Below are positions 27,789 to 49,536 of a stretch of 64,000 nucleotides of DNA, in pieces. Each line of letters begins with the position of its first letter. Position 1 is the first letter of the stretch. The translations under genes were made by a program, and so were the position numbers. The notes beneath the pieces are model-generated. The model was not told the origin of the DNA. It did not search any database and saw nothing but the letters and a program-made list of their open reading frames with translations. The stretch spans positions 122,059-186,058 of the forward strand of contig JBBTWP010000001.1 of assembly GCA_038062675.1 (NCBI GenBank), given 5' to 3'. The DNA is from Patescibacteria group bacterium. Its GTDB lineage: Bacteria > Patescibacteriota > Minisyncoccia > Phycocordibacterales > UBA1550.

Positions 27789-28415
27789 TTACGCAGTTTT
27801 TTTCACGAGAAGCAACTCCCGTGTTGCTTTTTTGTGAGTGTACATATTTTGGTCTGCTTGCTCGAAAAGAGTTTCGTAGGAAAGCAATCCTTCGCTTGTG
27901 GATGCGACTCCAATGGAAGCTCCCGAAAAATACACCATGGAATCTCTGAACTCATCAAACTTTTGAAGGAGGCGTTGCTTAACCAACTCAGCACCTTCTT
28001 TGCTTTCTCCGGGGAGAATGGCAGTGAACTCGTCACCACCAATGCGTGCAACCATGTCGTACTCACGCATAAGCTTCTTGAAAAGTTCTCCAAACTCTAT
28101 AATCATCCGATCTCCTTCGGAATGCCCATGCGTGTCATTGACCTTTTTCAAATCATTGAGATCAATAACAAAGATGGAAAAATGATGTTCGGGATGGTGA
28201 TGATGCTGCGAAAGCTCTTCTTTCACCCGATGCTCAAATTGGCGTCTCATCGGTAATCCTGTCAGAAAGTCCACAGAGGCTTCCCGAAGAAGCTCTCTGA
28301 GCTCCTCGTTTTGCCGTAATGCGATGGCCAACTGTGTTTCCAATGACTTGGACATACCTACCTCCAAAAGTTCAAGTTGTAAGGGGTCAAAATTCGATTG
28401 AATGTTGACTGACAA
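27789..28415 (-). CDS. GGDEF-domain diguanylate cyclase (stand-alone)
   Basis: GGDEF signature at RIGGDEFT. 208 aa, no sensor domain. Confidence 0.75.
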   Translation of the reverse strand: MSVNIQSNFDPLQLELLEVGMSKSLETQLAIALRQNEELRELLREASVDFLTGLPMRRQFEHRVKEELSQHHHHPEHHFSIFVIDLNDLKKVNDTHGHSEGDRMIIEFGELFKKLMREYDMVARIGGDEFTAILPGESKEGAELVKQRLLQKFDEFRDSMVYFSGASIGVASTSEGLLSYETLFEQADQNMYTHKKATRELLLVKKTA

Positions 28416-28515: not shown

Positions 28516-28971
28516 ATGACCTTACACGAACAAATCAAAAACGAAGTAAAAGACGCGATGCGTGCCAAAGACGCCATTCGCCTATCAGTAGTACGCGGAA
28601 TTCTTGCCGCTGCCACCAATGAGCTCGTTGCCATTGGCAAAATGCCTCAGGATATGCTCGATGACGTAGGCGTGCTCAAGGTCATAAAACGCCTCTCCAA
28701 CCAACGCAAAGATTCAATAAAGCAATTCACCGACGGTGGACGTCCTGAACTTGCCGAAAGCGAACAGGCTGAGCTCGCAATCCTTGATAAGTATCTCCCC
28801 GCCCTTATGCCGTGGGGTGAGATAAAGAAAATTGCAATCGCAAAAAAAGAAGCTCTCGGTATAACCGACAAGGCAAAAGCAGGTCAGCTCACCGGCGCCA
28901 TCATGAAAGACCTCGCGGGCAAGGCAGACGGCGGCGATGTGAAAGCAGTGGTAGACGAGCTTTTTGTGTAA
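28516..28971 (+). CDS. GatB/YqeY domain protein
   Basis: HEQIKNEVKDAMRAKD...VVRGILAA...AELAILDKYLP YqeY pattern. Start set at an internal Met. Confidence 0.7.
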   Translation: MTLHEQIKNEVKDAMRAKDAIRLSVVRGILAAATNELVAIGKMPQDMLDDVGVLKVIKRLSNQRKDSIKQFTDGGRPELAESEQAELAILDKYLPALMPWGEIKKIAIAKKEALGITDKAKAGQLTGAIMKDLAGKADGGDVKAVVDELFV

Positions 28972-28973
28972 GC
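28894..28973. repeat. direct repeat A (native yqeY 3-prime end)
   Basis: 80 bp, about 76/80 identical to 31488..31567. Confidence 0.85.
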
Positions 28974-28974
28974 T

Positions 28975-31458
28975 CTAGTCCCTCCGCAACTTTTCTTTGT
29001 AGAGATCCAGCCCTAGCAAAACCCAAGCCACTTCATAAAAACCTGCGTACTTGAAAGCATCGACCGACGCGATTTTTCTGTCAAAAATCTCACTCCCCAT
29101 AGTTTTGTTTACCAGACTCACGCCCGTCAACATGGCACCATAGCTTGCGAGCGATCCATACGGCACCTCAGATACTCCAGCCTGAGTGTAAACCGCAAAT
29201 ATTTCACCTTTTGCTACCCAGTCCCGTGCAAACACAGTGTTTTTATTCAAATGTGCAAGCCCGCGAGATTCGCCATACCAAAGGTAGTCCATAGCAACTC
29301 GATAGGGCACCCGCAGTGCATCATAAGAGTACCTCGAGCTCTCTGTTCCATTGAGCTTAAAATCCGCGATCAAGTTCCCTTGGGCGTCAAGGCTACACCA
29401 ATCCATCGCCAGCCCAAGAGCACCAGTACACATAGCAAGCACTTTGTACGAAGAGTCGACAAGCGACATCCACGCATGCTCAGTGTCAAAAGTAGCAAAC
29501 GCTCGGTACTGATAGGGAGCAAGGTAGGATGGGTTGACGACAATACCCGGATAGTAGAGCACTGCCCAGTTCCCTGCCCCCACATAACGCGTACCTGCAA
29601 CTTCTTTTGTTTCTACATTCCAAATATCCCGAACAATTTCTTTTGCCTGATTAAGGTATGCCACATCCCCCCATTTTTTGTATGCCAAATAAAGTGCATA
29701 AGCGATATCCTGATCCGCGTCAGTCGCTGGATTTTTGTCGGGAATAGCACCATTTTCCCACACCCAAGAAAAGAGTTTGTCTGTGGGACGAGTTTGCAGT
29801 GTGCTTCGCGTCCAGTTCCAGACGTTGTCAAACGTGCTCCGGTCGTTCGCAAGAATGGCAATGAGCATGCCGTATGACTGGCTTTCGGATGTCGTTCTAT
29901 TGGTACCACTTTCAACTCTTCCATTTGCAAGGAAATATTTTTCTTTGGTGGTTGTTAAAGTTTTCTGAACGACGGCTTCAATGCCTGAGAGATCGAGGCT
30001 CGTAGGAGTGGGTGCGGGTGCCGTCACAGGGGTTGGTGTTGGTGCGGGCGGAGGAGGGAGCGTGGAAAGCGCAAGAGTTGAACGAATCACATCCAGAAAT
30101 TTCTGTGCGATCTTTGCATGTGCTACTTCTGTCGGATGAATGCCGTCGTACAAGTCAGCGGTTGTTAATACTGAATTTACGTCCACAAAACGAACATTTT
30201 GACCGAGCGCAACACGCGCATCCACATTTTGGCGTATGACGGTGTTAAACTGCTGGACCAAGAGCGAGCGGTCAATATTGTTGGGCTTAACAAGAGCAGA
30301 AGACTGGGGCGGAATAGATGCAACAAAAATCCACGCCGTAGGACGCGCTACGCGTAGTTGGTCAATGAGTGCATTGTGACGAGCCCCAATTTGATTTGCG
30401 TTTTCAGCAGTCCACCACGCAATGTCGTTGGTGCCCGCCATAAGAAGAATGATGTTTGGTTGCGTAGATGTAAGCCAAGGGTTTACATCGCGGGCAATGC
30501 CACCAATCGTAAATCCTGAGTGTCCCTCGTGGTCCTTGTCGGCAACGCGCGTCCATTGGTCGGATTGCGTTCCCACGTAACTCACTCCGCAATTATTCTT
30601 TTGAAGCTCTGTGTATAGATTATTGCGATACCCGCCATTCACACCAAGAGTAATTGAGTCCCCTAAAGGTAGTATGTTGGCACAACTTTGCAATTGGGTG
30701 CTTGTGGATGGCGATGTAACTGGTGGCGGGATTGGAGCCACGGGTGGAGGTGTGGCAACAACAGGTGGTGGGGCAACAACTGGTGGTGGAGTTGGAACCA
30801 CGGGTGGTGGTGTGACTTGGGCTGGTATTGAAACAACAACGGGCGGTGGTGTGACTTGGGCTGGTATTGAAACAACAACGGGCGGTGGTGTGACAACAAC
30901 AGGTGGCGGGATTGGAACCACGGGCGGTGGTGTGACAATAACAGGTGATGGAGTTGGTGGCGGAATAACGACCGGAGGGGTCACAGCAGAAGCTACTGGC
31001 GGCAAAGGAGCCCTCGATGGTGTGCTTGGTGCCGGAACATCTTTTCCTCCCCCATTTGTTGTGGTAATACTTACGGTGACCACCTTATTTGAAGCAGGAG
31101 AAATTGCCGGCGAGGATTTTGTTGAAGGAGCAAGCGGAGCCAGCTCTTTCTTTGCTAGCGTAGAGTTGCGAGTGGCAGAGACTGTTCCCTGTGGAGCCAC
31201 AGAGCGAACATCCTTCGCCACCAAAGAAACAGGTGCCGTAACTCCTGTTTCTTTTTTCACAACGGGAAGAGGAGTATTCGCCACTTTGGTGACTACAGAA
31301 GAAGTAGTGTCAGTGAAATCTGAAAATGGAGGTGTACGAGGAGTCGGAGTCGCCTCCAAAGTCAGGACACCAAGAACAATAACAATTCCTGAGGAAATCA
31401 CCAAAAAAAACCGTATCCAATTTTTATAAAGAAACCACACGTGCTTGAATTGTAGCAC
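28975..31458 (-). CDS. secreted bifunctional SGNH esterase + GH8 glycoside hydrolase with Pro-rich linker
   Basis: N-terminal TM/signal. PPPVV repeat linker. SGNH blocks GDSITLG, GTND, DGIHPT. GH8 signature ATDADQDIAYALYLAYKKW and SQSYGMLIAIL. Confidence 0.8.
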   Translation of the reverse strand: MLQFKHVWFLYKNWIRFFLVISSGIVIVLGVLTLEATPTPRTPPFSDFTDTTSSVVTKVANTPLPVVKKETGVTAPVSLVAKDVRSVAPQGTVSATRNSTLAKKELAPLAPSTKSSPAISPASNKVVTVSITTTNGGGKDVPAPSTPSRAPLPPVASAVTPPVVIPPPTPSPVIVTPPPVVPIPPPVVVTPPPVVVSIPAQVTPPPVVVSIPAQVTPPPVVPTPPPVVAPPPVVATPPPVAPIPPPVTSPSTSTQLQSCANILPLGDSITLGVNGGYRNNLYTELQKNNCGVSYVGTQSDQWTRVADKDHEGHSGFTIGGIARDVNPWLTSTQPNIILLMAGTNDIAWWTAENANQIGARHNALIDQLRVARPTAWIFVASIPPQSSALVKPNNIDRSLLVQQFNTVIRQNVDARVALGQNVRFVDVNSVLTTADLYDGIHPTEVAHAKIAQKFLDVIRSTLALSTLPPPPAPTPTPVTAPAPTPTSLDLSGIEAVVQKTLTTTKEKYFLANGRVESGTNRTTSESQSYGMLIAILANDRSTFDNVWNWTRSTLQTRPTDKLFSWVWENGAIPDKNPATDADQDIAYALYLAYKKWGDVAYLNQAKEIVRDIWNVETKEVAGTRYVGAGNWAVLYYPGIVVNPSYLAPYQYRAFATFDTEHAWMSLVDSSYKVLAMCTGALGLAMDWCSLDAQGNLIADFKLNGTESSRYSYDALRVPYRVAMDYLWYGESRGLAHLNKNTVFARDWVAKGEIFAVYTQAGVSEVPYGSLASYGAMLTGVSLVNKTMGSEIFDRKIASVDAFKYAGFYEVAWVLLGLDLYKEKLRRD
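30802..30879. repeat. in-frame 39-bp tandem duplication inside the Pro-rich linker
   Basis: GGGYGGTGGTGTGACTTGGGCTGGTATTGAAACAACAAC x2, encoding VTPPPVVVSIPAQ x2. Confidence 0.8.
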
Positions 31459-31487
31459 AAAGTGCCATCAGTAAACCAACCCACACG

Positions 31488-31567
31488 GGCGCCATCATGG
31501 AAGACCTCGCGGGCAAGGCAGACGGCGGCGATGTGAAAGCAGTGGTAGACGAGCTCTTTGCATAAGC
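31488..31567. repeat. direct repeat B (orphan copy of the yqeY 3-prime end)
   Basis: Would encode ...GAIMEDLAGKADGGDVKAVVDELFA*. It is detached from any 5-prime part of yqeY. Confidence 0.85.
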
Positions 31568-31595
31568 AAGATCAATAAAAGACCGCCATCGCTTT

Positions 31596-31889
31596 TCAGC
31601 TAAATTGCCTTGTGAATTTTTCAGAAAAAGGCTTGCCGAAAGAAAGGAGTACTTGTCGAGAAAAAGGATCAAGCTTGTCGAATCCCAATACGAGATTTTG
31701 AACAACGAACCATTCCTCGCGCCCTGCGGGACTTATTTCACGAAGCGAAAGTATTTTCGACACCATATCAAGTGTGCGAGTTTTGAATTTAAGCGCAGAG
31801 TCAGTATTTCCTTGATCGTAAGCTTTGAACATTCGAGCAATTTCAGGCTCGACATTTGCGGCATAAAAAAGTGTATTTTTTTCAAACAT
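31596..31889 (-). CDS. hypothetical protein
   Basis: 97-aa ORF. Confidence 0.3.
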   Translation of the reverse strand: MFEKNTLFYAANVEPEIARMFKAYDQGNTDSALKFKTRTLDMVSKILSLREISPAGREEWFVVQNLVLGFDKLDPFSRQVLLSFGKPFSEKFTRQFS

Positions 31890-31892
31890 ATA

Positions 31893-32246
31893 TTATTGTT
31901 TAAACTGAATCCAAGCGTGAATGATCTCTGTAGCTTTCTTTGCAACCTCCTGGTCCTCAACCGAGCGACTTTTATTGCCAAGCGATGGCTTAATATTCAC
32001 CAAAGAATCAAATTCCAAAAGAGCATCCTGACCTTCATCAAATCGAATATTGAACCCCCATACGTTCACATGGTTTGACCCATCTTCAACAAGAAGTTCA
32101 CAGGTCTCCATATGATAATCCCCGCCAATCGCAACTTTGTTCTCAAGAATATCCACCGTCCCTTTAATCATGGTTCCATACCACTCTGTGGCAATTGTGC
32201 GCACCTCTTGCATGGAAGTTGGTTTTTTGAGAATATGTATTGCCAT
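31893..32246 (-). CDS. hypothetical protein
   Basis: 117-aa ORF, 3 nt upstream of the previous ORF. Confidence 0.35.
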   Translation of the reverse strand: MAIHILKKPTSMQEVRTIATEWYGTMIKGTVDILENKVAIGGDYHMETCELLVEDGSNHVNVWGFNIRFDEGQDALLEFDSLVNIKPSLGNKSRSVEDQEVAKKATEIIHAWIQFKQ

Positions 32247-32395
32247 AGAACCATGTTAGCACATAGGCAACCATTTAGGCAAAATACCGTATCCGTCCAC
32301 AACATATGAAAGTTCCCAACCCCCCTTGCCAACTCCCTCATTCCCTGCTAGAGTATGGGCTGGCACATTTTACCCAGCAAATAGGAGTTACTTTA

Positions 32396-32676
32396 TGAGT
32401 AGACCGTCAGTGTATTCAAGCAATCGGCACGTTGTTCAAAAAACAAATGACCCATTGCCTGTCCCCGCCCCTATAGTAGGTGTGGAGCTTGCTATGCTTT
32501 TGCTATCGAAAAATACCCCTATCGAAGCGGCTCAAAGAGCAGTTTCTGAGACAGGTTATACTGCCGCAATCAATAGAGCACAAAGGTTGCCTCAATTGTG
32601 CGTAGCGCGTAATCCCAGAGATAAAATCATTGGACGCGGGTGCAACCAAGACACCATCTGTATTCCTTGGAAATAA
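32396..32676 (+). CDS. small Cys-containing protein, paralog A
   Basis: Preceded by CTGCTAGAGT (extended -10-like) at about 32358. Shares ...VSETGY... with B and C. Start set to the ATG after TTACTTT. Confidence 0.4.
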
Positions 32677-32756
32677 AAAGAGTCAATCAATAACCATAAA
32701 TAGAGTACGGACCGGTACATTTCATCCACGAATACATAACCTCGAAGGAGTGGTCT

Positions 32757-33056
32757 ATGGAAAAACAGCCATTGTATTACCCAGTCGCCCCTCTTCAAAG
32801 ACACGACAAGCCTGAGCTACTCAAAGAAAAAGCTCCTTCATTCAAACAAATGACAGGAGAAGAACATGCGAGAGTCCTCCTTCGCGAAGGTTTCAAGGTC
32901 ATGAAGGCGAAGGAGACACTTGAAACCATGGGCTACTTTGTGAGAATTAATAGTATCAATCCGCCCGAGCTCCATGTGTCACTTGCAACACAGAGAACGG
33001 TTACAAATACAAATCTAGAGCCACCCACCAAGTGCGTCCGTTGGGAAATCACATAA
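32757..33056 (+). CDS. small protein, paralog B (PPELxVS...KCVRW family)
   Basis: SD AAGGAG. PPELHVSLA...KCVRWEIT, similar to paralog C. Confidence 0.5.
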   Translation: MEKQPLYYPVAPLQRHDKPELLKEKAPSFKQMTGEEHARVLLREGFKVMKAKETLETMGYFVRINSINPPELHVSLATQRTVTNTNLEPPTKCVRWEIT

Positions 33057-33078
33057 AAAGGAACGGGAGAAACCCCAA

Positions 33079-33107
33079 CCCCCGAGCAGGACTGCTCGGG
33101 GGTTTTC
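33079..33107 (+). terminator. intrinsic terminator
   Basis: CCCCCGAGCAG / CTGCTCGGGGG stem followed by TTTTCT. Confidence 0.6.
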
Positions 33108-33206
33108 TACGCCACAGTTTTAAAAAATACAGGCGATTGACCCATATTACATTCCCTGCTAAAGTACGGGCTGGATATAGTTCACAAGCAAAGGAGGCGT
33201 TTCGCA

Positions 33207-33482
33207 ATGCAAGCACCTAGAGTTGCCCAACCCACACTAGCACCAACCGAGAAAAACGAGTCAGAAGGAGTCGCACTCGCGTATGCACTACTGAAGGGTG
33301 GCGTTGATATCAAAACCGCAAAAAAAGTAGTAGAGGCGTCTGGATATGGAACAGACATAAAGGGAACCCACCCGCCAGAACTGTGGGTGTCGGAGGCGCA
33401 CAGCACAACAATCCACACACAGGGAAGCAACACCCACCTCACTACGCCGATTAAAAAGTGTGTTCGCTGGGACACCGCATAA
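33207..33482 (+). CDS. small protein, paralog C
   Basis: SD AAGGAGG. PPELWVSEA...KKCVRWDTA. Preceded by CTGCTAAAGT at about 33166. Confidence 0.5.
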   Translation: MQAPRVAQPTLAPTEKNESEGVALAYALLKGGVDIKTAKKVVEASGYGTDIKGTHPPELWVSEAHSTTIHTQGSNTHLTTPIKKCVRWDTA

Positions 33483-33505
33483 AAAGCAACAAGCAAACAA
33501 TCACA

Positions 33506-33536
33506 AAGCCCCGGCATCCGCCTGGGCTTTTCTTTT
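33506..33536 (+). terminator. intrinsic terminator
   Basis: AAGCCC...GGGCTT stem followed by TTCTTTTG. Confidence 0.45.
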
Positions 33537-33544
33537 GCATGACA

Positions 33545-33763
33545 CTACCTTTTCTCTCGTATCATCATATACACAAAGAGCGAAACAATAGACACCCCAA
33601 AACAAACAATTCCAAACGTATCTTCACGAGGCCATGGCAAAAGATGCGTCAGTGGAAGCGCGAGCGTTTGCGGATGAAATACCGCATTTTCCGCAATATA
33701 AAACCACCCAGCAAAACTATGCACAAATAACGTAAACGTGGCAGCTCGTAAAAATCTTTTCAT
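33545..33763 (-). CDS. small membrane protein
   Basis: 72 aa with 2 TM helices. ATGA overlap with the upstream kinase-like gene. Confidence 0.35.
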   Translation of the reverse strand: MKRFLRAATFTLFVHSFAGWFYIAENAVFHPQTLALPLTHLLPWPREDTFGIVCFGVSIVSLFVYMMIREKR

Positions 33764-34380
33764 AATATAGTTTCAATTGTATCAGATTTTTTATAAAAAG
33801 CTTTGTCCATTTCATTCACAAAATAATCGCGCAGATTTGCAGGCAGAGAATTTACCACATCAAATGTTGCCCATGGTCGTTTTGCTAAATGATGACGAAT
33901 AGTTTTTGCATCAGTGCACAATTCGCCCAAATCCATTAAGATAATGTTCCCATCCGCATTCATTCCAAAATTGTCGGTAATAAGAAAGTTGCGGTCAATA
34001 AGGGAATGTTCGATGAGAACTTTGTTAAATTCAACAAAACTATCCACAATCCGCTCCCCCTCCTCTCGTCCCCCTTGCTCCAATTTTTTGCGCAATGAAA
34101 CAACAAAATCTTGTTCGTAATCAAGGGTACCTACTACTCGCGGATTGCCCAACATCCAACTTTGAATGGTTGTATGCAAAATTTCCTGCATTGAATAAAC
34201 CGCTTCCATTCTACACCTTTCGTAATATGCAGGAAATTTCCAAAGGGGGTGTTCAAAATAAGGAAAGCAATCACGCAATAGTATAAGATACGCAAGAAAC
34301 CGAGAGTTGTATTTTTTAAACACTCTCCCCTTTCCTATGTCATAAACACTGTACTGCCATCCCCGACCGATTGCTTTCAT
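33760..34380 (-). CDS. protein-kinase-like fold protein (Kdo/LPS-kinase-like)
   Basis: EHSLIDRNFLITDNFG resembles the HxDxxxxN catalytic loop, and ILMDLGEL resembles DFG. Confidence 0.4.
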   Translation of the reverse strand: MKAIGRGWQYSVYDIGKGRVFKKYNSRFLAYLILLRDCFPYFEHPLWKFPAYYERCRMEAVYSMQEILHTTIQSWMLGNPRVVGTLDYEQDFVVSLRKKLEQGGREEGERIVDSFVEFNKVLIEHSLIDRNFLITDNFGMNADGNIILMDLGELCTDAKTIRHHLAKRPWATFDVVNSLPANLRDYFVNEMDKAFYKKSDTIETIL

Positions 34381-34389
34381 ATAAACATC

Positions 34390-35691
34390 CTACTCTTTTG
34401 CCGTACTTGAGGCAATCATGTTTTTAAATACCTCATACGCTGGCTTCTTGCTTCCGTCATACCGTACAAGACCAAAAAAGTTTTCGTTGGTATTTTTTGA
34501 AACACCAAGATCTTTATACGTGTACCAAAAAAGTGGGCCCACCCAATCATATTTCTCATATTGCAGGACTGCATCTTTAAAAATACCAACTTGCAATTCT
34601 TCGCTCACATGGTCGGGGTGTTGACTGTAATTAAAATCATCGAGCGTTGCCATTGCACCCGGTCCCCCCGTTGGCGCCCCTACTTCAGTAATCCATATTT
34701 TTTTTCCAGCATCACCATTTTCTTGCATAATGCTTCGTAAACTTGGATTCGTATCGATCATTTGGGACCATCCGCTCCATGACTCTACTGTCAAAGCAGT
34801 AACAGGAAAAGAATATGGATGATACCCCACCACATCAAAATACGGTCGAGCTCCCTGCTCATAGAGTTGCTTCAAGAAATCTCTGGGGGCGATACTTCCC
34901 CCCTTTGTGTCCGAGGGTCCCATTCCTCCAGTCATTACTATTGCGGAAGAATCTAAGCTTTTTATCGAAACATAACTCTCCTTGAGAAGTTCGGCGTATA
35001 GGGAAACATTTGCCTCGGGCCTCCAAAAAGCTTTTAAGTTTGGTTCGTTCCATATTTCCCACACATGTACGCCTTGCGACGAATATCTTTTTGCAGCTTC
35101 TCGCGCAAAGATACCAAACTGAGTAATATTCGCGGGTGCACATTTGTCGCTATTTACACATTCAGGAAGTCGCGCCCATTTTGGTGTATATCCCAAAATA
35201 GGGAGTGGTCTCAAATTGTGTGCGTCCAATGCTTTAATAACACGATCAACGCGACTCCATTCAAAATGCAAACTATCTTTGGGCTGGACTTCCTCCCATT
35301 GCATATCAAAGCGCACCCATCCGACTCCCAATGTAGTCAATTCGGAGAGTTTCTTATCTAACTCTTTGGCGTTCATCGAGTACAAACCGCCAATGGAAAT
35401 GCCAAAGTTATAATTTAAGATTTTTGCAGTTACCGGAGGCGGAACTATGGGACTGGGAGATGGTTTCGGAATCACCGGAGCAACAACCACAGGCGACACC
35501 TCTTGCTTCGCTGGTAGGACTATAACCACAGAGGGGGTTGGCGCTGGCACCACTGCCGTAACCTCAATTTCTCGATTGTAGTAAACTCTTACCACAACCA
35601 TCACAACCAACGACAAGCTAAGGAGAGAGATCCAAAATCGTTTGCGTTTTCTCGTAAAATAAGGCATAATAAGACATCTTCTCGCTACCAC
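34390..35691 (-). CDS. secreted GH5-like glycoside hydrolase with Pro-rich linker
   Basis: N-terminal TM, then a Pro-rich spacer. VHVWEIWNEPN (acid/base Glu) and IWITEVG (nucleophile Glu). Start uncertain (GTG at 35691 or ATG at 35667). Confidence 0.65.
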   Translation of the reverse strand: MVARRCLIMPYFTRKRKRFWISLLSLSLVVMVVVRVYYNREIEVTAVVPAPTPSVVIVLPAKQEVSPVVVAPVIPKPSPSPIVPPPVTAKILNYNFGISIGGLYSMNAKELDKKLSELTTLGVGWVRFDMQWEEVQPKDSLHFEWSRVDRVIKALDAHNLRPLPILGYTPKWARLPECVNSDKCAPANITQFGIFAREAAKRYSSQGVHVWEIWNEPNLKAFWRPEANVSLYAELLKESYVSIKSLDSSAIVMTGGMGPSDTKGGSIAPRDFLKQLYEQGARPYFDVVGYHPYSFPVTALTVESWSGWSQMIDTNPSLRSIMQENGDAGKKIWITEVGAPTGGPGAMATLDDFNYSQHPDHVSEELQVGIFKDAVLQYEKYDWVGPLFWYTYKDLGVSKNTNENFFGLVRYDGSKKPAYEVFKNMIASSTAKE

Positions 35692-35745
35692 AGTGTAGCT
35701 ATTTTAGTGCCTTTTTACAAGCTCAGATTTCCCGACAACCACCCC

Positions 35746-36984
35746 ATGAAAGAAAAGTTATATTCCCTCTTCCAAGACAGCCTCTTCCGCAACTCTTTTT
35801 ACCTTATGCTCGCTACTGGCGTCATGGCAGGTTTTGGTTTTTTCTTTTGGCTCATCAGTGCCCGTCTGTTTTCCACCGAGGATATTGGTCTTGCCACTAC
35901 CCTTATTTCTGTGATGAATATAATTGCCTTGCTAAGCCTCATTGGTTTTGACTCTGCATTCGTGCGATTTCTTCCCAACTCTGACAAAAGGAACGACCAT
36001 CTTAACACCGGACTCATCCTCGTAGGGGCAACGGCACTTGTTTTAGCATTCCTCTTTATAGTATTTGTTCCTGAAATTTCCCCTCGTATTAGTTTTATAG
36101 GAGAGAATCTACCTATTGCATTAGCATTCATTTTTTTCTGTGTCATGTCGGCCTTAAATATTCTTACTGATTCAGTATTTCTTGCCGACCGACAAACAAA
36201 ATTTACCCTCATCATCAATACTGCCTTTAGTGTCCTTAAAATGGTGCTCCCTTTTGCATTCATTGGTTGGGGAGCTTTGGGTGTTTTTACGGCCGCAGCA
36301 ATAGCACAAACTGTAGGTTTCGTACTAAGTATTGTAGTAATGATGCGCAAGTTTGACTACCGCCCTCAATTTATCATTAGTAACAATATTCTTAAACTCG
36401 TACGACAATATTGTTTGGGCAATTATATTGCTGTAATTTTAAACCTATTGCCCATTGCTCTGTTGCCCATCATCATAACCAATAATCTTGGTCCAGAGCA
36501 GGCAGCCTATTATTATATTGTGATGATGATTGCAAACCTGTTGTACGTTATCCCCCAAGCTACCACCAAGTCGCTCTTTGCGGAGGGTTCCAACAATGAA
36601 GGAACGCTCCGCACGAATGTGGGGAAATCAGTACGAAATATTAGCATCCTTTTGATTCCAGCTATCGCCGTACTTATCTTAGGTGGTAAATACATTTTGG
36701 GAATTTTTGGAGAAGATTATTCAACAGGAGGTCTTACGCTCCTCTATTTTATTGCCATTGCGGCTATTCCAGTAAGTGGTTACTCTATTTTTTATGCTTT
36801 GCTCAGAATTAAGAAGGGGCTCAATGGACTTATCATAACTAATATTTTTTATGCGGGGTCGATTATTGGGCTAAGTTACGCACTGCTTCCCATGGGACTA
36901 GTCGGGATTGGCATCGCATGGCTTTTTGGGAACGTAGTCGCAAGTGTGGTAAGCTGCTTAATGACCACACAAGGAAAGCGTTAA
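35746..36984 (+). CDS. oligosaccharide flippase (Wzx/MOP family)
   Basis: About 12 TM helices in the polysaccharide-biosynthesis-protein pattern. Start set at MKEKLY. Confidence 0.7.
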   Translation: MKEKLYSLFQDSLFRNSFYLMLATGVMAGFGFFFWLISARLFSTEDIGLATTLISVMNIIALLSLIGFDSAFVRFLPNSDKRNDHLNTGLILVGATALVLAFLFIVFVPEISPRISFIGENLPIALAFIFFCVMSALNILTDSVFLADRQTKFTLIINTAFSVLKMVLPFAFIGWGALGVFTAAAIAQTVGFVLSIVVMMRKFDYRPQFIISNNILKLVRQYCLGNYIAVILNLLPIALLPIIITNNLGPEQAAYYYIVMMIANLLYVIPQATTKSLFAEGSNNEGTLRTNVGKSVRNISILLIPAIAVLILGGKYILGIFGEDYSTGGLTLLYFIAIAAIPVSGYSIFYALLRIKKGLNGLIITNIFYAGSIIGLSYALLPMGLVGIGIAWLFGNVVASVVSCLMTTQGKR

Positions 36985-36994
36985 TTTAACATTC

Positions 36995-37873
36995 ATGATT
37001 AAAATTCTCAAAAAAATTACTCCTCAATTTGTTTTTACTTTTGTTGGAAGATATCATGTTATTAAAAACACAGAATCGTTTCTCCAACAACCCCTGTATA
37101 GCATCTTGAAATTAGTGCGGTGGACAATTTTTGAATTATTGGGTCTGGATATATCATTTACCACTCCTGACGGAACTCGTTTTACTTCAATGACGCGCAA
37201 CTACAGTTCCTTTATTGTCTATTTTACAGACTATCGAGACCCATCAATTCAATTATTTTTAAACAAACACCTCACCAAAGACTCAATATTTGTAGATGCA
37301 GGGGCAAATATTGGTACGTACACAATACGCGCAGGACAACAGGTTGGCTCACAAGGGAAAGTAATCGCTGTGGAAGCCCATCCATCTATTTATAAGTACT
37401 TACTAAAAAATATTGAGTTGAATAATTTAAACAACATAACTCCCGTTAACGTTGCTCTTGGATCCGAACGCGGTACTACAGAAATATCTTACAATGACTC
37501 AAATCCTGGCGAAACTCACGTAGCAATTAATGGGGAGAAAAGCATTGTTGTACCAATACAGACACTCGACGAAGTCCTGGAAAAACTTGGAGTCGATCAT
37601 GTGGATTACCTCAAAATTGATGTTGAAGGTTTTGAACTTCCATTGCTCTTAGGTTCACAGGAAACGATTAAAAATAATCCTGAGATTGTTATTCAAACGG
37701 AGCTTGTCGAAAAACACTCAAAAAGATACGGACGTTCTGTAACACAAATTACCGATTTACTTTCTAGTTTTGGACTAATCCCTCATGAGCTCGACTTTGA
37801 GGGAAATCCAGCAAAAATAGAAAAATTTGATTTGGCAAGAAAAGAATACGATGTTCTTTGGTGGAGAGAGTAA
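36995..37873 (+). CDS. FkbM-family methyltransferase
   Basis: VDAGANIGTYT SAM-binding motif. Confidence 0.65.
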   Translation: MIKILKKITPQFVFTFVGRYHVIKNTESFLQQPLYSILKLVRWTIFELLGLDISFTTPDGTRFTSMTRNYSSFIVYFTDYRDPSIQLFLNKHLTKDSIFVDAGANIGTYTIRAGQQVGSQGKVIAVEAHPSIYKYLLKNIELNNLNNITPVNVALGSERGTTEISYNDSNPGETHVAINGEKSIVVPIQTLDEVLEKLGVDHVDYLKIDVEGFELPLLLGSQETIKNNPEIVIQTELVEKHSKRYGRSVTQITDLLSSFGLIPHELDFEGNPAKIEKFDLARKEYDVLWWRE

Positions 37874-37882
37874 CTAAAAATT

Positions 37883-39067
37883 TTATTGCTTATTCTTTTC
37901 AGCTACATCATTATATAATTTGACTATTATCTGTGCATGTTGTTCAATGTCAAAATCAAGCGCCCTGCTACGAGCATTCAGAGACATTTCTTGGAGCATT
38001 CCTGGAGTGGATAAAATCCTTATGACCTTATCCGCAATCGCAGAAGAATTTTCTGGAGGAACTAAATAGCCGGTTTCACCATCAACTAACCACTCACTCA
38101 TCCCACCAGCATCGCTTGCTATTACGGGACGACCAAGGCTCATCGCCTCAATCCCGACCTTGCCAAAAGGCTCAGGCCAAACTGAAGGGACAATTAAGAT
38201 TTTTAAACGTCGATAAAGATCATGGAGCTGTCCTCGATTTAAGTGTCCAAGAAAATTGACATGACTTTCAATACCTAGCTCCTTTGTGAGTAATTTCAAT
38301 TGATTTTCATAAGGGCCAGTGCCAGCAATATCTAATCTTATATCAGAATATCTTTTAATTATGTTCGGCATGGACTCAATCAAATACTGTACTCCTTTGA
38401 ATTTTTCTATTCGACCAACGTATGCAATAAGATTACTTTGTAAGTCAATTGGTTCGTACTCGAATAATTTTGTTGCGTTGGGCACACAAACACTTTCAAT
38501 GTGGTCGACCTTCATCAAATTTTTCATGTACTGGCTAAAAACAATAAAAAGATCTACATTTCTAAAACCAAAGCGATAAATAGCACCATTAATATAGCGA
38601 TGATATACATAATGTAGCCACCCTGAGAAGTTCAGTCCACTAAGTTTATATTGATCATCCTTGAAACAAGTTTTAGGAAAACTCCACAACAATAAACTTG
38701 GAGTGAAATCCTCTGCTCCATGAATCGTCATAACTGTGGGGTATTTTTTTAACAAAAAAAGAACTGATGGCGAAACTTGACTCATTGTATGTAGTTGCAC
38801 AATGTCAGGTTGGTATTCTTTGAGAACTTTTCGAAGTGCGAAATATGAATTCGGATAGAATGATCGATAGAATAATTTAAGAACATGGGGCTGGTAATCA
38901 AGTGCCTTAAATTCAAAATCGCTGAAGTGGGGTAAATCGGAGCGAAGATTGCTCGTTAAGATTTTCACGGTGTGTCCCATGCGTCTCAATACTTTATCAA
39001 CAAGGATAATCCCATTGTCTGAGCCACCCCCTTCAAAACCAATACTTGTAATTCTTAAAATTTTCAT
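37883..39067 (-). CDS. GT4 glycosyltransferase
   Basis: EPFGKVGIEAMSLGRPVIASDAGG retaining GT-B motif. Confidence 0.8.
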   Translation of the reverse strand: MKILRITSIGFEGGGSDNGIILVDKVLRRMGHTVKILTSNLRSDLPHFSDFEFKALDYQPHVLKLFYRSFYPNSYFALRKVLKEYQPDIVQLHTMSQVSPSVLFLLKKYPTVMTIHGAEDFTPSLLLWSFPKTCFKDDQYKLSGLNFSGWLHYVYHRYINGAIYRFGFRNVDLFIVFSQYMKNLMKVDHIESVCVPNATKLFEYEPIDLQSNLIAYVGRIEKFKGVQYLIESMPNIIKRYSDIRLDIAGTGPYENQLKLLTKELGIESHVNFLGHLNRGQLHDLYRRLKILIVPSVWPEPFGKVGIEAMSLGRPVIASDAGGMSEWLVDGETGYLVPPENSSAIADKVIRILSTPGMLQEMSLNARSRALDFDIEQHAQIIVKLYNDVAEKNKQ

Positions 39068-39070
39068 AAT

Positions 39071-41491
39071 TTATTTGTATATTTTTGCTCCCCCGTTATT
39101 GTAAATAAGATTTTTATTATCGTCCAGAAATTGCATAGGATACATATAAGTTATTTGGTCTCCACCGTAGACTACTGTAGCCCTTTGTTTTCTGGTTGTT
39201 GCCTCACCCAAAAATACATATGCATCTTTTCGTACTACCGCGGGAAAAATTTCATTTGTTACATCTAAAGGGGTTAAAGATGTAATCTTTCTCTGAGAAT
39301 ACCTATCCGTTTGAATTTTAATCTTAACCCCATGAGTATCACTGTGAGGGATAGCGTCAAGCCATGTAACCCCCAACACCTCAGGAGCTTTAATGAGATA
39401 GTTGTCATAATATCTTCCCGTATTGTTCAAATGAAGCATTCCTGAAGTTTTACCGAAGATTTGGGGCAAAAATGACGTAGAATACATAAAAAACAATAAT
39501 GTTAAAATTACGGGGAATACGATATTTTCGTCGTTTTTTTGTGTTAGTATTGAGGTTACCTGTTTTTTAGATTTAAAACGAGATAATAATTTTTTAATCC
39601 AACTACCGATCCACAAGCTCGCAATCAGTATGGGAAGCGCTAATACAAACATAGATTGCTGCATGGCTCTATATATTCCGTATTCGGTAGAAAGAACAGG
39701 GATTACTAGGATCAAGAATATAAAGGTGAGAGCAGACACCGCTATTATATAAAATTCGCTATCAAGATATCTTACGGCAGACCTTCGCAACAAGAAATAC
39801 AAGAGCCCTAACGGTACCAAGACTTCCATGAGCTTTACAAGTATTCGTCCAAAAGCAGAGATTTTTGAAGTAATATTAAATCCTGATTTTTCTACAAAGT
39901 TGCCAAAATTGGTTAAAGGTATTCGCTCATCAGGTAAGGCAAGAAAGTTATATTTCGCATATGTCGATGCATCAAAATACACCCCCGGTGTCGCGGTATT
40001 TCTAATTGGGTTAAGAACTTTTTCAATGTAATCTTGCAGTTGTTCTTGCTGGCTTGGTTTTTTTAAACTGAATAAGTTTAAGGCATCAGTAGATCGATTG
40101 TTTTCATTAAACCCGTTTCCAATCGCAGATAGTGTCTTTTTTAAAACGGTGGTTATGCTTCCCCCTGTGTTGGTAACAACTGACGTCCACAGGAAACTCA
40201 CTAGCATCAGAATGACAATCATGGAAACCGTGATATTCGCTTTTTTCTCAGTCCCGCTGGTTGTAAGTGGAATATGCAGTGATGAATCCTTGAGTATGTT
40301 TGTTTTCTGATTAAAAAATTTAAACAACCAAATAAATATCGGTCTCAATACTATTGTCAATGCAAAAATTAAAAGTATAGTATACGTTGTTGAATAGTGG
40401 GAAAGTATCACTCCAATTCCCATTACAACAAACAATATTCTACGAACTTTAATATCCAGCTTTAATTCAAAGATGAGGTAAATCATCAACCCATAAAAAA
40501 GAAAGGCGATCTCCTGTCGAACAAGAAATGCCATATCCGCAAAAAAAGTTGGAAAGGACAAAAAATAAAATCCGGCAAGAAATGATATACGACGATCTGC
40601 CCAATGTCGGCTAATTAAATACGTAATTCCTGCGCAAAGTGCAAAGAATAACTGAAACAAAAATTTATAGATATACGGATCCGATACCTTTAGCAAATTG
40701 AAAAAAATGGTGGGAAGTATGGTAATGCTTAAGCATGCATTGTATGCATCACGATAAAAGTCCATATTCCAGAGACCAGCATTTTTTGTAAGTTCAAAAA
40801 CTTTATATTCTTGTTGTATGTCGTGCCCGGTAATATACCATCCGCGCAAACTTGTCATCAAGAGGAGTGATAAACTAATGAAAAAAAGTGCCGTTGGTAC
40901 CGTGTTTTCACCAATTTTTTTAGCATAAATATACAAGACTAGCGCAAAGACAGCTATTTCGCCCAACATCGCCAGTGTCCACAACCCAGTACCTCCATTA
41001 TTGAGACTTAGCGCCCCAATGATGCTTTGCACAACAAACAACATAGAGATTAGAGACAACCATGTATCCAACTTGGATGGAAAAAGCAAATAAAATATTT
41101 TACCGATGCTTACTTCCCAGTCAGGCAATTTTTTCCAAGCGACAAAAGATAGCGCAAATACTAAAATACTCATCTCCACAATAAGTACATTTTGAGCAAG
41201 TGGTTGAATAATGCCAAGCTTGGGAAGGAAGAAGTTTCCAATTAACACCATAACCATCAACTCTAAAAGACTAAAAGCCACACTTATCGATACATTCGCC
41301 CAAAAAGGAAGTTGTTTCAGCCTCAAAATGAGCAATGTGAGTACCCCAGGAACAAATGTTAAAAAAAGAAAGCCGACAATATTAAGTACCTGAAAATTGT
41401 TGAAATGCGCAAGAGAGAGCGCAATAAAAACCAGCCACCATAGAGCGACCCCTCCGATTAGAAAATTACGCTTTATTGTTAGTTCTTTCAT
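39071..41491 (-). CDS. large polytopic membrane protein (putative polymerase/GT-C-like)
   Basis: 806 aa with more than 14 predicted TM helices and a C-terminal soluble domain, inside the glycosyltransferase operon. Confidence 0.55.
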   Translation of the reverse strand: MKELTIKRNFLIGGVALWWLVFIALSLAHFNNFQVLNIVGFLFLTFVPGVLTLLILRLKQLPFWANVSISVAFSLLELMVMVLIGNFFLPKLGIIQPLAQNVLIVEMSILVFALSFVAWKKLPDWEVSIGKIFYLLFPSKLDTWLSLISMLFVVQSIIGALSLNNGGTGLWTLAMLGEIAVFALVLYIYAKKIGENTVPTALFFISLSLLLMTSLRGWYITGHDIQQEYKVFELTKNAGLWNMDFYRDAYNACLSITILPTIFFNLLKVSDPYIYKFLFQLFFALCAGITYLISRHWADRRISFLAGFYFLSFPTFFADMAFLVRQEIAFLFYGLMIYLIFELKLDIKVRRILFVVMGIGVILSHYSTTYTILLIFALTIVLRPIFIWLFKFFNQKTNILKDSSLHIPLTTSGTEKKANITVSMIVILMLVSFLWTSVVTNTGGSITTVLKKTLSAIGNGFNENNRSTDALNLFSLKKPSQQEQLQDYIEKVLNPIRNTATPGVYFDASTYAKYNFLALPDERIPLTNFGNFVEKSGFNITSKISAFGRILVKLMEVLVPLGLLYFLLRRSAVRYLDSEFYIIAVSALTFIFLILVIPVLSTEYGIYRAMQQSMFVLALPILIASLWIGSWIKKLLSRFKSKKQVTSILTQKNDENIVFPVILTLLFFMYSTSFLPQIFGKTSGMLHLNNTGRYYDNYLIKAPEVLGVTWLDAIPHSDTHGVKIKIQTDRYSQRKITSLTPLDVTNEIFPAVVRKDAYVFLGEATTRKQRATVVYGGDQITYMYPMQFLDDNKNLIYNNGGAKIYK

Positions 41492-44894: not shown

Positions 44895-45595
44895 ACAAGT
44901 TTTCCATTAGTGAGATATTCTACACCGGCTTTATTGGCAATATGTTGAAACACACGTTCTAAGCGATTCCAATCTTTTAGTTTTTCAATTTCCCAACTAT
45001 GTCCCCAAATATGAAAAACTCCTCCGTTTTCAGAGACACGCTCAAACATAGCAATGGCAAGATTATCCCAATGGCGATAGTATTGGAAAAATTTAAATGG
45101 ATTGAATCGCACAAAGAGTGCAATCTGCCATGCATCCAGCCAGTGGTCGTAAGTGTGTATGCTGGTCGGCATTTCGTAGAGGTCTTTTATAAAACCAAAA
45201 GAGAATCTGCGCACAGTGCGCGCGAGGACAAACCCTGCTTCCCGTACCACTTGCTTCTGCTTCAAAAGGTATTTTCCGCTCGGGTAACAGAAACTTTTCA
45301 CAGAACCACCCGTCCACTTTTCAAGAAGCTTTTTTGAATCAGAAATTTCGCGCTCAATTTGTTCATCAGTTAACAAGCGCATATCGGGATGCGTCATGGT
45401 GTGTGCGCCTATCTCAAAATCTTTTGACAAGGCCAGGACTTGCACTTGAGAAAGTCTATCTTGAGGGAGAATTTCGTGGCATTCAGGAGCAATATAAAAA
45501 GTGCCCTTGAGATTGTACTTTTTAAGAAGTTGCGCAAGTTTTAGGTCGAGCACGTGTCCATCATCCCAACTGGTTGTTACGATTACTTTTTTCAT
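44891..45595 (-). CDS. polysaccharide deacetylase (NodB-like)
   Basis: TSWDDG...GTFYI and HTMTHP motifs. Confidence 0.6.
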   Translation of the reverse strand: MKKVIVTTSWDDGHVLDLKLAQLLKKYNLKGTFYIAPECHEILPQDRLSQVQVLALSKDFEIGAHTMTHPDMRLLTDEQIEREISDSKKLLEKWTGGSVKSFCYPSGKYLLKQKQVVREAGFVLARTVRRFSFGFIKDLYEMPTSIHTYDHWLDAWQIALFVRFNPFKFFQYYRHWDNLAIAMFERVSENGGVFHIWGHSWEIEKLKDWNRLERVFQHIANKAGVEYLTNGKLV

Positions 45596-45599
45596 AATA

Positions 45600-46730: not shown

Positions 46731-46755
46731 GATTCATGAGGGCAAACCGACAGAG

Positions 46756-47457: not shown

Positions 47458-47466
47458 ATATTTTAT

Positions 47467-48230: not shown

Positions 48231-48260
48231 AAAAACCCGCATTTTAGGATGCGGTTTTTT
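48231..48260 (-). terminator. intrinsic terminator (bidirectional)
   Basis: A5-CCGCAT-TTTAGG-ATGCGG-T6. Confidence 0.55.
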
Positions 48261-48265
48261 GTTGC

Positions 48266-49062: not shown

Positions 49063-49536
49063 ATGTCGCTCAGCCTGAGCCCAAAACAATCAAGGGGCGT
49101 ACTTACTCACATAAAACAACACCGTGGTATTGAACCATTACGAACCATTGACTTATTGCCTCCGGGGTGGTATTTTTCATACAGGTACATTCTGAAGAGG
49201 GGTGACGTCATGGCACACGGTGGCAGACCTGCGGGGTTGAGTAGTGTTGCGGACAAGATACGACGACTTTTAAAAAGTGGCGAAAGCATTTACTACATTA
49301 CCAGCTCTCTCTCACGAAAAGAGGGTTATGGTGCAAATTGCATTGAGCAACACATGCGGGAGTTTGGATTTGAGACGTTGCTCATTAAACCTGCGCCCGT
49401 GAAGCCGTTTTTTGAACTTTACATAACCGATAACCCGGTTTGTTTTGTATCAAAGGACGGAAAGAAGAAGGAGTGCAATGAGTTGTCTGATTTTCTTGAG
49501 CAGGAATCGGATAGGATCAGAATCTTTAAGAAATAA
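49063..49536 (+). CDS. hypothetical protein
   Basis: 157-aa ORF (or 108 aa from the internal Met at about 49210). Confidence 0.3.
   Translation: MSLSLSPKQSRGVLTHIKQHRGIEPLRTIDLLPPGWYFSYRYILKRGDVMAHGGRPAGLSSVADKIRRLLKSGESIYYITSSLSRKEGYGANCIEQHMREFGFETLLIKPAPVKPFFELYITDNPVCFVSKDGKKKECNELSDFLEQESDRIRIFKK

Follow-up and report, generated by a model that had tools for sequence, protein, structure and literature searches.

Orphan paralogues in a tandem array of expression cassettes, remodelled between close strains, in a Patescibacteria genome

CPR/Patescibacteria genomes are small yet rich in unannotated genes, orphan families are common in them, and the basis of strain-level specificity in these episymbionts is largely unknown. 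Three consecutive small open reading frames (ORFs), here A, B and C, were singled out by a sequence-only reading of a 64,000-nucleotide stretch of one such genome (hereafter the window), and they raise the questions of whether they are genuine genes, how they are expressed and altered between strains, and what their products might do (Table 1).

Table 1. Features of the A–B–C array and of a distant candidate paralogue (positions within the window).
Feature	Position	Strand	Details
Promoter of A	32326..32369	+	-35 TTGCCA at 32326-32331, 17-nt spacer, extended -10 TGCTAGAGT at 32346-32354
Second -10-like element of A	32361-32369	+	TGGCACATT, at the expected start site
Gene A	32395..32676	+	93 aa; A-type (LCV, GRG loop, CIPW-K end)
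A-B spacer	32677..32756	+	residual B promoter: TAGAGT at 32701-32706, CGGTACATT at 32713-32721; no terminator
Gene B	32757..33056	+	99 aa; NCBI hypothetical protein AAB552_00950
3' homology block of B	33030..33064	+	AAGTGCGTCCGTTGGGA..CATAAAAAG; 80% identical to 33456-33490; repeat D6
Intrinsic terminator of B	33077..33110	+	12-bp GC-rich stem, then UUUUCU; dG -27.9 kcal/mol, z -4.0
Promoter of C	33137..33181	+	-35 TTGACC at 33137-33142, extended -10 TGCTAAAGT at 33157-33165
Second -10-like element of C	33172-33181	+	TGGATATAGT
Gene C	33207..33482	+	91 aa; NCBI AAB552_00955
3' homology block of C	33456..33490	+	partner of 33030-33064
Intrinsic terminator of C	33505..33540	+	dG -19.0, z -3.9
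D, candidate distant paralogue	49149..49536	+	promoter TTGACT-17-TGGTATTTT; likely start ATG at 49210, stop at 49536

A, B and C are genuine protein-coding genes, paralogous to one another and belonging to an orphan family, given their mutual BLASTP matches (B vs. C, 5e-14, 42% over 65 aa; A vs. C, 7e-7; A vs. B, 5e-5), the intact ORFs of about 12 distinct homologues (78–99 aa), the dN/dS values reported below, and confident AlphaFold cores. The tandem triplet of small paralogues is thus upheld, and alignment places a common module, G.E.A..LL..G..I..A...L...GY...I...PPEL.VS...C[VI].W, in register in all three. An earlier start proposed for A, at 32326, is not retained: this position is the TTG of the -35 hexamer, and the ATG at 32395 is best supported, by NCBI/ENA gene calls and by the N-termini of the family. 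No signal peptide or transmembrane segment is evident in A, B or C, the N-termini of which are hydrophilic and Pro-rich, and GRAVY values for the family proteins range from -0.24 to -0.73. The reported lack of a signal peptide therefore holds, and the description of the proteins as cytoplasmic has the absence of export signals as its sole basis. "Cys-containing" is accurate for A, B and C, but it is not a family trait, as Cys is absent from three homologues (P0012, P0013, and P0016).

The sequence-only reading had allowed that homology searches might expose the three ORFs as degraded fragments of one larger ancestral gene. No evidence in support was found, and this explanation is refuted: A, B and C are homologous to one another over their full lengths rather than to successive parts of a larger protein; each gene has a Shine–Dalgarno (SD) sequence and, in two cases, also a promoter and terminator of its own; single-copy stand-alone homologues, such as those at loci L017 and L018, are of equal size (stand-alone homologues span 78–99 aa); and an exhaustive HMMER search of 1.84 billion representatives recovered no genuine longer protein with the domain. 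Matches to the long proteins P0005, P0010, P0015, P0011, and P0014, which are Ig-like, SLH or Big_12 repeat proteins, were treated as spurious, because their scores are summed over 4–23 weak stretches and because these proteins are all-beta, as opposed to the helical family.

In 15 billion proteins, the family is represented by about a dozen distinct sequences, almost all of them from one Patescibacteria/Saccharibacteria lineage in Hainich groundwater. Among curated families, no Pfam, NCBIfam, PHROG or PADLOC match was obtained for A, B or C (E <= 0.1–1), and a scan of all 11 members at E <= 10 gave no family with matches to more than one of them. PDB sequences likewise gave no match, a PDB profile search returned only ankyrin (E 1.4), and Foldseek with the AlphaFold models found nothing; the initial impression that the proteins belong to no recognisable family is therefore borne out by profile searches and structure comparison alike. 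A phage or plasmid origin was rejected, since tblastn against phages and plasmids was empty, and no paper on the family, or on comparable patescibacterial arrays, was found in the literature. The genes are both real and new, their novelty consisting in the fact that every comparison run came back empty.

Judged from its sequence layout, each family gene originated as an autonomous expression cassette. In the cassette, a consensus-like -35 hexamer, (C)TTGAC, is separated by 17 nt from an extended -10 (TGYTARAGT), and 15–16 nt further along, at the expected start site, is the second -10-like element, either TGGYACATT or TGRTATAGT. An unstructured leader of 35–45 nt and an SD sequence GGAG(G) follow, ahead of an ORF roughly 90 codons long and, after it, an intrinsic terminator. 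At L013 and L001, too, there are tandem cassettes that each carry a promoter and a terminator of their own. The -10-plus-20-nt block has a mean identity of 67% between cassettes, compared with 48% for the coding sequences. The 25-mer CATTCCCTGCTARAGTAYGGGCTGG is present in exactly two copies in the window (32339-32363 and 33150-33174), a non-random recurrence given that none is expected (100 shuffles, even with three mismatches allowed), and the specific promoter block is absent from the window's other promoters. The duplicated promoter that had been noticed before A and C is thus confirmed, with sigma-70-type TTGMC-17-TGCTARAGT at both sites; before B, the block survives only as its 3' half (TAGAGTACGGACCGGTACATT at 32701-32721), the -35 and TG having been lost. 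Strong SD sequences, correctly ascribed to B (GAAGGAG) and C (AAGGAGG), are joined by a good one before A (AGGAG, ~32384-32388, 7 nt before the ATG). B and C do possess their own terminators, as had been claimed, and no terminator follows A (z +0.5). The terminator of C is also found after B at L001 and L002, and after the single-copy homologue at L017. In L001, the A–B spacer carries an extra 52 bp with a terminator and a -35 TTGACG, both missing from the window; because the spacer terminator and the -35 of B have been lost relative to L001, A and B are probably read as one bicistronic transcript, and C as a second.

Other readings of the conserved upstream DNA were rejected. A structured 5' leader or riboswitch is not indicated, as the predicted folding of the leaders is no more stable than that of shuffled sequences (z -0.7 to +0.5) and the region has no Rfam match. 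As to a sigma-54 promoter (TGGCAC-N5-TTGC, with GG at -24 and GC at -12, 10 nt apart), TGGCAC is present in some copies of the block, but the -12 element reads TTCC, ACCC or ATCC, never TTGC, and a complete sigma-70 extended -10 promoter lies immediately upstream. Nor does the block encode an N-terminal extension of the proteins: the "RVWAGTF" frame is open in A and L011, but before B and C the same block is not in frame with the gene. The conserved block AYGGGCTGGYACATT forms an inverted repeat only in copy A (CTGG-N10-CCAG), with no dyad in its other copies. In public collections, the exact 21-nt promoter block gave only chance matches plus L002 among the matches listed, which include L014 (inside a UvrD-like helicase coding sequence) and L015 (Saprospiraceae).

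The locus evolves as a mosaic, and the array is remodelled between close strains. Between the window and L001, the flanks share 92.5–93.8% nucleotide identity and the A proteins only 40% amino acid identity, the A cassette having been replaced from just past the -35 to just past the stop codon. C is absent from L001 and L002, where B is fused to the terminator of C, and the junction of this presence or absence is a homology block of 35 nt in which the 3' ends of B and C correspond. At L011, YqeY is 86% identical to its counterpart in the window, and the adjacent family member is 22–30% identical to A, B, and C. In B, amino acid changes are about as frequent as silent ones: its dN/dS is 0.91 between the window and L001, against 0.11 for the neighbouring DUF5674 gene and 0.07 for the 97-aa gene (Fisher p = 6e-4), and between close strains it is 0.6–0.9, against 0.07–0.11 for neighbours, comparisons of 13–25 substitutions in which relaxed and diversifying selection are not separable. 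Values are 0.29 for P0012 vs. P0016 and 0.19–0.38 among A-type alleles. A diversity-generating retroelement was rejected as the source of this variation, as no part of 32300-33560 has a second copy elsewhere within the 64-kb window, and the between-strain differences involve all four bases rather than following the adenine-specific pattern of such elements.

The dN/dS of B between close strains, the dispensability of C in two strains, and the extremely narrow distribution of the family would also fit functionless lineage-specific duplicates, or young de novo genes, that are drifting to loss with a promoter inherited by recent duplication. Against this, in all of the ~12 homologues the ORF is intact and the conserved core positions are kept, even where identity is as low as 22%; dN/dS falls to 0.19–0.38 in deeper comparisons; the promoter block is better conserved than silent sites (for P0012 vs. 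P0016, pS of 0.33 vs. 4–15% promoter divergence); the family persists in a distant GC-rich organism as a single copy complete with promoter and terminator; and the AlphaFold cores are confident. Drift of functionless genes is therefore highly unlikely.

Mycoplasma vlp/vsp loci consist of variable tandem genes with conserved promoter/5' cassettes, and recombination between shared blocks alters their repertoire. The array resembles them in having a conserved promoter block shared by tandem genes with diverging coding regions, but it lacks a signal peptide, lipobox, internal coding repeats, and a homopolymeric or invertible promoter switch. It is conceivable, if doubtful, that the array is a promoter-anchored cassette system, in which the ~45-nt conserved promoter block and the conserved 3' end would act as recombination handles, so that highly diverged alleles of a small binder with a new fold could be swapped, gained or lost in a CPR lineage as strain-specific specificity factors directed at hosts, phages or competitors; all cassettes would then have a common control point in the second -10-like element at +1.

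The neighbourhood includes genes for an SGNH+GH8 hydrolase, a DUF5674 protein, the 97-aa protein, a 72-aa membrane protein, a 206-aa protein, a GH5-like protein, and PMT_2, as well as yqeY and rplU. The view that the hydrolase gene was recently inserted is corroborated, as it is bracketed by an 84-nt copy of the yqeY 3' end (94% identical), and in relatives yqeY directly adjoins the family. The "kinase-like" label found no confirmation, the 206-aa neighbour having no match in Pfam, NCBIfam or PADLOC, and the co-occurrence of SGNH/GH8 or of the 206-aa gene with the family, raised in the same reading, did not materialise at L002, L011, L013, or L017. A functional link to either gene was rejected, as neither is consistently beside the family in other genomes. 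A GH5-type glycosidase does travel with the family in syntenic loci (L004, L005, and probably L017); at L005, the product at the GH5 position is a 425-residue protein with a weak Cellulase match, and the unannotated 409-residue protein at the same position of L017 is probably a GH5-type glycosidase. As a functional partner it was rejected, being convergently transcribed and within a variable glycan island. No toxin gene or toxin domain was found among the neighbours of the family, nor does it have a conserved neighbouring gene for a toxin, for modification or export, or for a partner.

D, which lies 15.5 kb from the array, across a glycan-biosynthesis island, is tentatively regarded as a fourth, distant member of the family. 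Its promoter has GGTACATT exactly 7 nt past the hexamer (49184-49191), hhalign relates it to the family at E 0.005–0.013 (real score reached by 0 of 200 column shuffles), and the D orthologue at L010 is located immediately downstream of an A-type gene.

Only hydrophobic, Gly and Pro positions are conserved across the family (L36, A46, G54, L68, and W92 are invariant, in A numbering), and the family alignment contains no invariant polar or catalytic residue. AlphaFold models, built on alignments of 11 sequences only, predict, with confidence, an alpha-alpha-beta-beta-loop-beta core of ~65 residues, preceded by an N-terminal tail that is disordered and rich in Pro. The model of A has a pLDDT of 75, with the core above 90 over residues 30–70, and the model of C has the same topology. 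Because the conserved positions are only hydrophobic, Gly or Pro, the proteins may be non-enzymatic binders, and their rapid mosaic evolution, together with copy-number variation at a hot spot beside a variable surface-glycan island, suggests a strain-specific interaction. To the combined reading, of orphan paralogues in cassettes, within a remodelled array, the products of which are non-enzymatic soluble binders in a strain-specific interaction, we assign a probability of roughly 0.45. The disordered tail and compact domain would form a soluble, putatively abundant protein that binds a macromolecular partner, in an interaction that would be immunity/antidote-like or specificity-factor-like rather than housekeeping. 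Confidence in the binding role itself is low, and the functional argument is indirect, drawing on the pattern of evolution and on the lack of catalytic residues, homologues, and partner genes.

Arrays of orphan immunity genes in polymorphic toxin and bacteriocin systems are similar in several respects: they contain small soluble non-enzymatic tandem paralogues (a putative property here) in a variable region, and close strains differ sharply in the number of copies and in their sequence. As in toxin–immunity modules, the locus varies in copy number from strain to strain, and its small proteins diverge rapidly. The family differs from such arrays in having no toxin gene or domain nearby and no match to known immunity families or PADLOC, and in that its cassettes each have a strong promoter and a terminator of their own rather than lying within a toxin operon.

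The proteins could instead be small winged-helix-like DNA-binding proteins of Cro or excisionase size, which would bind the start-site block of their own and each other's promoters and thereby autoregulate the array. The predicted topology, basic pI and start-site block fit this as well as they fit a binder. As in lambda Cro and in excisionase/MerR-N proteins (60–100 aa, mostly basic), two helices and a short loop lead directly into a beta-hairpin, and the sheet gains a third strand (a likeness of topology only, from the secondary-structure string); most members have a pI of 8–10; a conserved A-[KQR] opens helix 2; and the -10/+1 region of every cassette overlaps a conserved non-coding block, which has no further copy in the window and occurs once only in a related MAG, at the A promoter. 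A D-type relative also has a weak, sub-threshold TetR_N match (E 0.22). However, no helix-turn-helix (HTH) family matches any member even at E <= 10, and neither sequence profiles nor Foldseek give a Cro, Xis, MerR or winged-helix match. The inter-helix loop, at 4–5 residues, is longer than the classical HTH turn, and the third strand comes from the C-terminus and not, as in winged-helix proteins, from the N-terminus. The block is neither a dyad nor a direct repeat in most copies and is more simply explained as a second -10-like hexamer, its two variants both keeping YAYAKT; moreover, fast-diverging protein surfaces facing a constant DNA block are unexpected for a cognate protein–operator pair. 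DNA-binding autoregulation is thus unlikely, but it retains some weight.

The invariant Trp, 2–5 residues from the C-terminus, invites a further explanation, in which the proteins are precursors of exported strain-specific peptides (a ComX-like pheromone, leaderless bacteriocin or RiPP), with the variable C-terminal part ending in C-x-x-W as the active moiety. ComX-type pheromone precursors at comQXP loci have an invariant Trp near the C-terminus and divergent alleles between conserved flanks, and the family shares both features with these pherotype loci; in addition, the segment preceding the Trp is the most variable part of the family proteins and has the lowest model confidence, and each gene has its own strong predicted promoter. 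Yet neither a ComQ-like prenyltransferase nor a sensor kinase adjoins the family, and across nine independent contexts it has no conserved neighbour encoding a prenyltransferase, protease, ABC exporter or RiPP enzyme. The proteins exceed such precursors in length (about twice that of ComX), no GG or other cleavage motif is present, and Cys is not conserved; furthermore, in the models the sheet of the folded core incorporates the C-terminal strand and its Trp (pLDDT about 90 in A, 79 in C). A peptide-precursor function is accordingly very unlikely.

The locus is a compact, well-delimited case of a family with no detectable relative in sequence or fold, in strongly built cassettes, which diverges many times faster than its neighbours and varies in copy number among co-occurring strains of one aquifer. 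If the proteins are dispensable products of young genes, the locus documents the birth and turnover of orphan families in reduced genomes. If they are specificity or immunity factors, or represent a new small DNA-binding fold, they would offer a route into strain-level interactions in an uncultured phylum, and the locus would also be a natural marker of strain diversity.

The MAG that contains the window, on a contig of 265 kb, belongs to the Patescibacteria (CPR) and was obtained from groundwater at Hainich (sample Hain_H41; the Hainich MAG collections are described in PMC8672522), and a closely related MAG carries the label Candidatus Saccharibacteria. The three tandem genes A, B, and C are real paralogues, as had been proposed from the sequence alone, with homology extending over their full length in alignment (BLASTP 5e-14 for B–C, 7e-7 for A–C, and 5e-5 for A–B). 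The mechanical ORF start for A (32326) lies inside a -35 hexamer; the start was placed at ATG 32395 because public gene calls and family N-termini agree with that position.

Features of the paralogue array and its surroundings (window coordinates)
Feature	Position	Strand	Remarks
Gene A	32395-32676	+	93 aa
Gene B	32757-33056	+	99 aa; NCBI hypothetical protein AAB552_00950
Gene C	33207-33482	+	91 aa; NCBI hypothetical protein AAB552_00955
D (tentative paralogue)	called 49063-49536 (157 aa); start most likely ATG 49210	+	orthologue in locus L010 (114 aa) aligns from internal Met
SGNH+GH8 hydrolase gene	28975-31458	-	bracketed by repeats 28890-28973 and 31484-31567
Apparent variable island	about 33545-49000		surface-glycan genes; apparently absent between array and homologues of 49.6-50.3 kb in loci L010 and L012

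The proteins constitute an orphan family, new by every comparison made here, in agreement with the sequence-only reading, which had recognized no family. A, B, and C matched nothing in Pfam, PHROGs, NCBIfam, or PADLOC; 11 aligned members scanned at E <= 10 had no family in common; the family matched no PDB sequence; and tblastn against phages and plasmids found nothing. Three sequence searches (word-indexed, 5.8 billion clusters; exhaustive HMMER, 1.84 billion representatives; and an 11-sequence profile) yielded, apart from the window proteins and close variants, just seven small proteins (78–96 aa; P0006, P0007, P0008, P0009, P0012, P0013, and P0016). Long proteins from the HMMER search (Ig-like, SLH, or Big_12 repeat proteins) were discounted because each score adds up many weak repeats. 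The most distant member, P0013 (78 aa, no Cys), is encoded at 820-1056 of L018, a contig that is rich in GC and belongs to another sample, downstream of an FtsX-like C-terminus and a DUF5666 gene; the family is thus not strictly limited to the Hainich lineage. This single gene has its own terminator and an ordinary, unrelated GATATAAT promoter.

AlphaFold2 models of C and A, built with the family alignment, share one topology (pLDDT 70.8 and 75, respectively; about 90 for residues 30–70 and the C-terminal strand of A). A disordered, Pro-rich N-terminal tail of 17–28 residues is predicted to precede a core of helix, 4–5-residue loop, and helix, followed by a G-Y/F turn, a beta-hairpin bearing NPPEL.V, a variable loop (GRG(G) in A-type members), and a C-terminal strand bearing an invariant Trp. 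Positions conserved in all or nearly all members (G29, A33, L36, A46, G54, (Y55), I59, L68, V70, and W92, numbered as in A) are all hydrophobic or turn residues, and no conserved polar residue occurs in the family alignment, which argues against an enzymatic role. The description of the proteins as Cys-containing holds for A, B, and C; it does not extend to the family, three members of which lack cysteines. With no catalytic residues, a small domain, and a disordered tail, we infer that the family proteins act as soluble binders and not as enzymes. A precursor of ComX or RiPP type is an unlikely alternative identity for these products.

The duplicated promoter reported before A and C was confirmed: the 25-mer CATTCCCTGCTARAGTAYGGGCTGG occurs at 32339-32363 and 33150-33174 (0 expected by chance), and at each site a consensus scan found a TG-extended sigma-70 promoter (TTGCCA-17-TAGAGT and TTGACC-17-TAAAGT). 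The 3' half of the block is retained at B, so that TARAGTAYGGRCYGG matches perfectly at exactly three places in the 64 kb, one for each gene. B and C do each end in a strong terminator, as had been described (dG -27.9 kcal/mol for B and -19.0 kcal/mol for C; z about -4 each); folding against shuffles revealed no terminator in the A–B spacer, and the cassette leaders are unstructured. In L001, a compared locus, this spacer retains a terminator and the -35 of B, both lost from the window through a 52-bp deletion; A and B are therefore probably bicistronic in the window. Eleven cassettes from seven contigs share an ancestral layout: (C)TTGMC, a 17-nt spacer, TGYTARAGT, AYGGGCTG, a -10-like element in two sequence variants (TGG[CT]ACATT or TG[GA](A)TATAGT / TGACATAGT), and an ATG 40–52 nt past the first hexamer. 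The cassettes are strongly built, autonomous units; in L013, for example, two lie behind yqeY, and each carries a promoter and a terminator of its own. Mean identity between cassettes is 67% in the -10-plus-20-nt block vs. 48% in coding sequence. Generic TTGAC-N15-TGNTARAGT promoters elsewhere in the window all lack the downstream block, and the window's only three occurrences of GGYACATT are all exactly 7 nt past a -10-like hexamer. We read the promoter as strong and of the extended -10 type, with a further -10-like element at the start site; this element could represent a second promoter in tandem, a site of sigma-dependent pausing, or an operator. An exact 21-nt promoter block in L014 (4361-4381) is a chance match inside UvrD-like helicase coding sequence (encoding ..KVWAGTFHS..), illustrating that pattern scans of huge collections yield coding look-alikes; a second match lies in a Saprospiraceae MAG (L015 4528-4548).

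The main rival to a soluble binder is a DNA-binding autoregulator, similar in size to Cro or excisionase, that would act on the conserved +1 block; the block itself, the predicted topology, and the pI fit such a protein, but there is no HTH or fold match, the block has no dyad symmetry, and the protein changes fast while the site stays constant.

The array diverges fast and in mosaic fashion, and its copy number differs between strains. Between the window and L001, identity is 93.8% over 792 nt upstream (the 97-aa gene, the DUF5674 gene, and the A -35) and 92.5% in B, whereas the A cassette, from just past the -35 to just past the stop codon, cannot be aligned by blastn, and the A proteins are 40% identical. 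In the same comparison dN/dS is 0.91 for B vs. 0.11 for DUF5674 and 0.07 for the 97-aa gene (Fisher p = 6e-4 on nonsynonymous:synonymous counts). Relative to L002, one site differs in A, 13 in B, and 10% of the hydrolase 5' end; the divergence of the locus is thus mosaic. C is missing from L001 and L002. In both, the last codons of B lead into the terminator found after C in the window, and a 35-nt homology block (33030-33064 / 33456-33490) forms the junction. The YqeY proteins of the window and L011 share 86% identity, whereas P0016, encoded next to yqeY in L011, is only 22–30% identical to A, B, or C. Deeper comparisons (dN/dS 0.29 for P0012 vs. P0016; 0.19–0.38 among A-type alleles) show purifying selection; the genes are coding, with a constrained core and rapid change elsewhere. 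All family ORFs are intact; neutral decay is unlikely, as is the possibility that the triplet represents fragments of one larger gene. A diversity-generating retroelement (DGR) is not indicated, the window having no template repeat or second copy elsewhere.

The array is located at a plastic junction, an insertion/deletion hot spot. In L011 and L013 the family directly adjoins yqeY; in the window the hydrolase, 97-aa, and DUF5674 genes intervene. An 84-nt direct repeat of the yqeY 3' end (94% identical) brackets the hydrolase gene, supporting its proposed insertion. L002 lacks the block 31492-32320 (97-aa and DUF5674 genes) and has a PMT_2 gene downstream, and L017 has a single copy between rplU and a 72-aa / GH5-like / Polysacc_synt cluster. 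Because downstream neighbours in L010 and L012 are homologous to the window at about 49.6 and 50.3 kb, the ~15.5-kb glycan segment (33.5–49.0 kb) appears to be a variable genomic island; it encodes a 72-aa membrane protein, a 206-aa protein, GH5-like, Polysacc_synt, a methyltransferase, several GT4/GT2, DUF2206, a polysaccharide deacetylase, and DUF3800. A GH5-type glycosidase gene lies beside the family in syntenic loci L004, L005, and probably L017; among the loci compared no other neighbour consistently accompanies the family, including the SGNH/GH8 gene and the 206-aa gene (called kinase-like from the sequence alone), for which a co-occurrence test had been proposed.

Other features were recorded nearby. 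A GGDEF diguanylate cyclase domain protein (27789-28415, minus strand; Pfam E 2e-38) adjoins yqeY. Within the hydrolase gene, 30718-30984 contains 21-nt periodic repeats, which probably code, on the minus strand, for a linker of low complexity, and has the highest GC of the neighbourhood (0.51–0.55 vs. about 0.45). A DUF3800-V RNA (Rfam RF02964, 72 bits, E 2e-14; 48131-48227, plus strand) lies near the DUF3800 gene (48266-48910), on the opposite strand and past its 3' end. A 96-nt tRNA-Thr(GGT) called by ARAGORN (60933-61028, plus strand) is almost certainly a false positive because the Rfam tRNA model has no match there; the call falls inside uvrB (59694-61730, minus strand).

D may be a distant fourth family member, on modest sequence statistics. 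Its called ORF is probably over-extended; a promoter (TTGACT-17-TGGTATTTT) and the signature GGTACATT lie at 49149-49191, within that ORF. The L010 orthologue, P0017, is encoded directly downstream of the A-type gene P0009, and both D and P0017 show the G.E.A..LL / GF / PP.LYV pattern. Against the family, hhalign gave E 0.005–0.013 at low probability and hmmsearch E 0.33, and 0 of 200 column shuffles attained the real score.

Both the observation and the core interpretation of the sequence-only reading stand. From the evolutionary pattern and location, we infer a strain-specific, conflict- or specificity-related role for the soluble binders rather than a housekeeping one. Small proteins of orphan families are frequent in CPR; what is unusual here is that a conserved promoter with a double -10, the replacement of cassettes, and differences in copy number among co-occurring strains come together, a combination that can be tested with existing metatranscriptomes.
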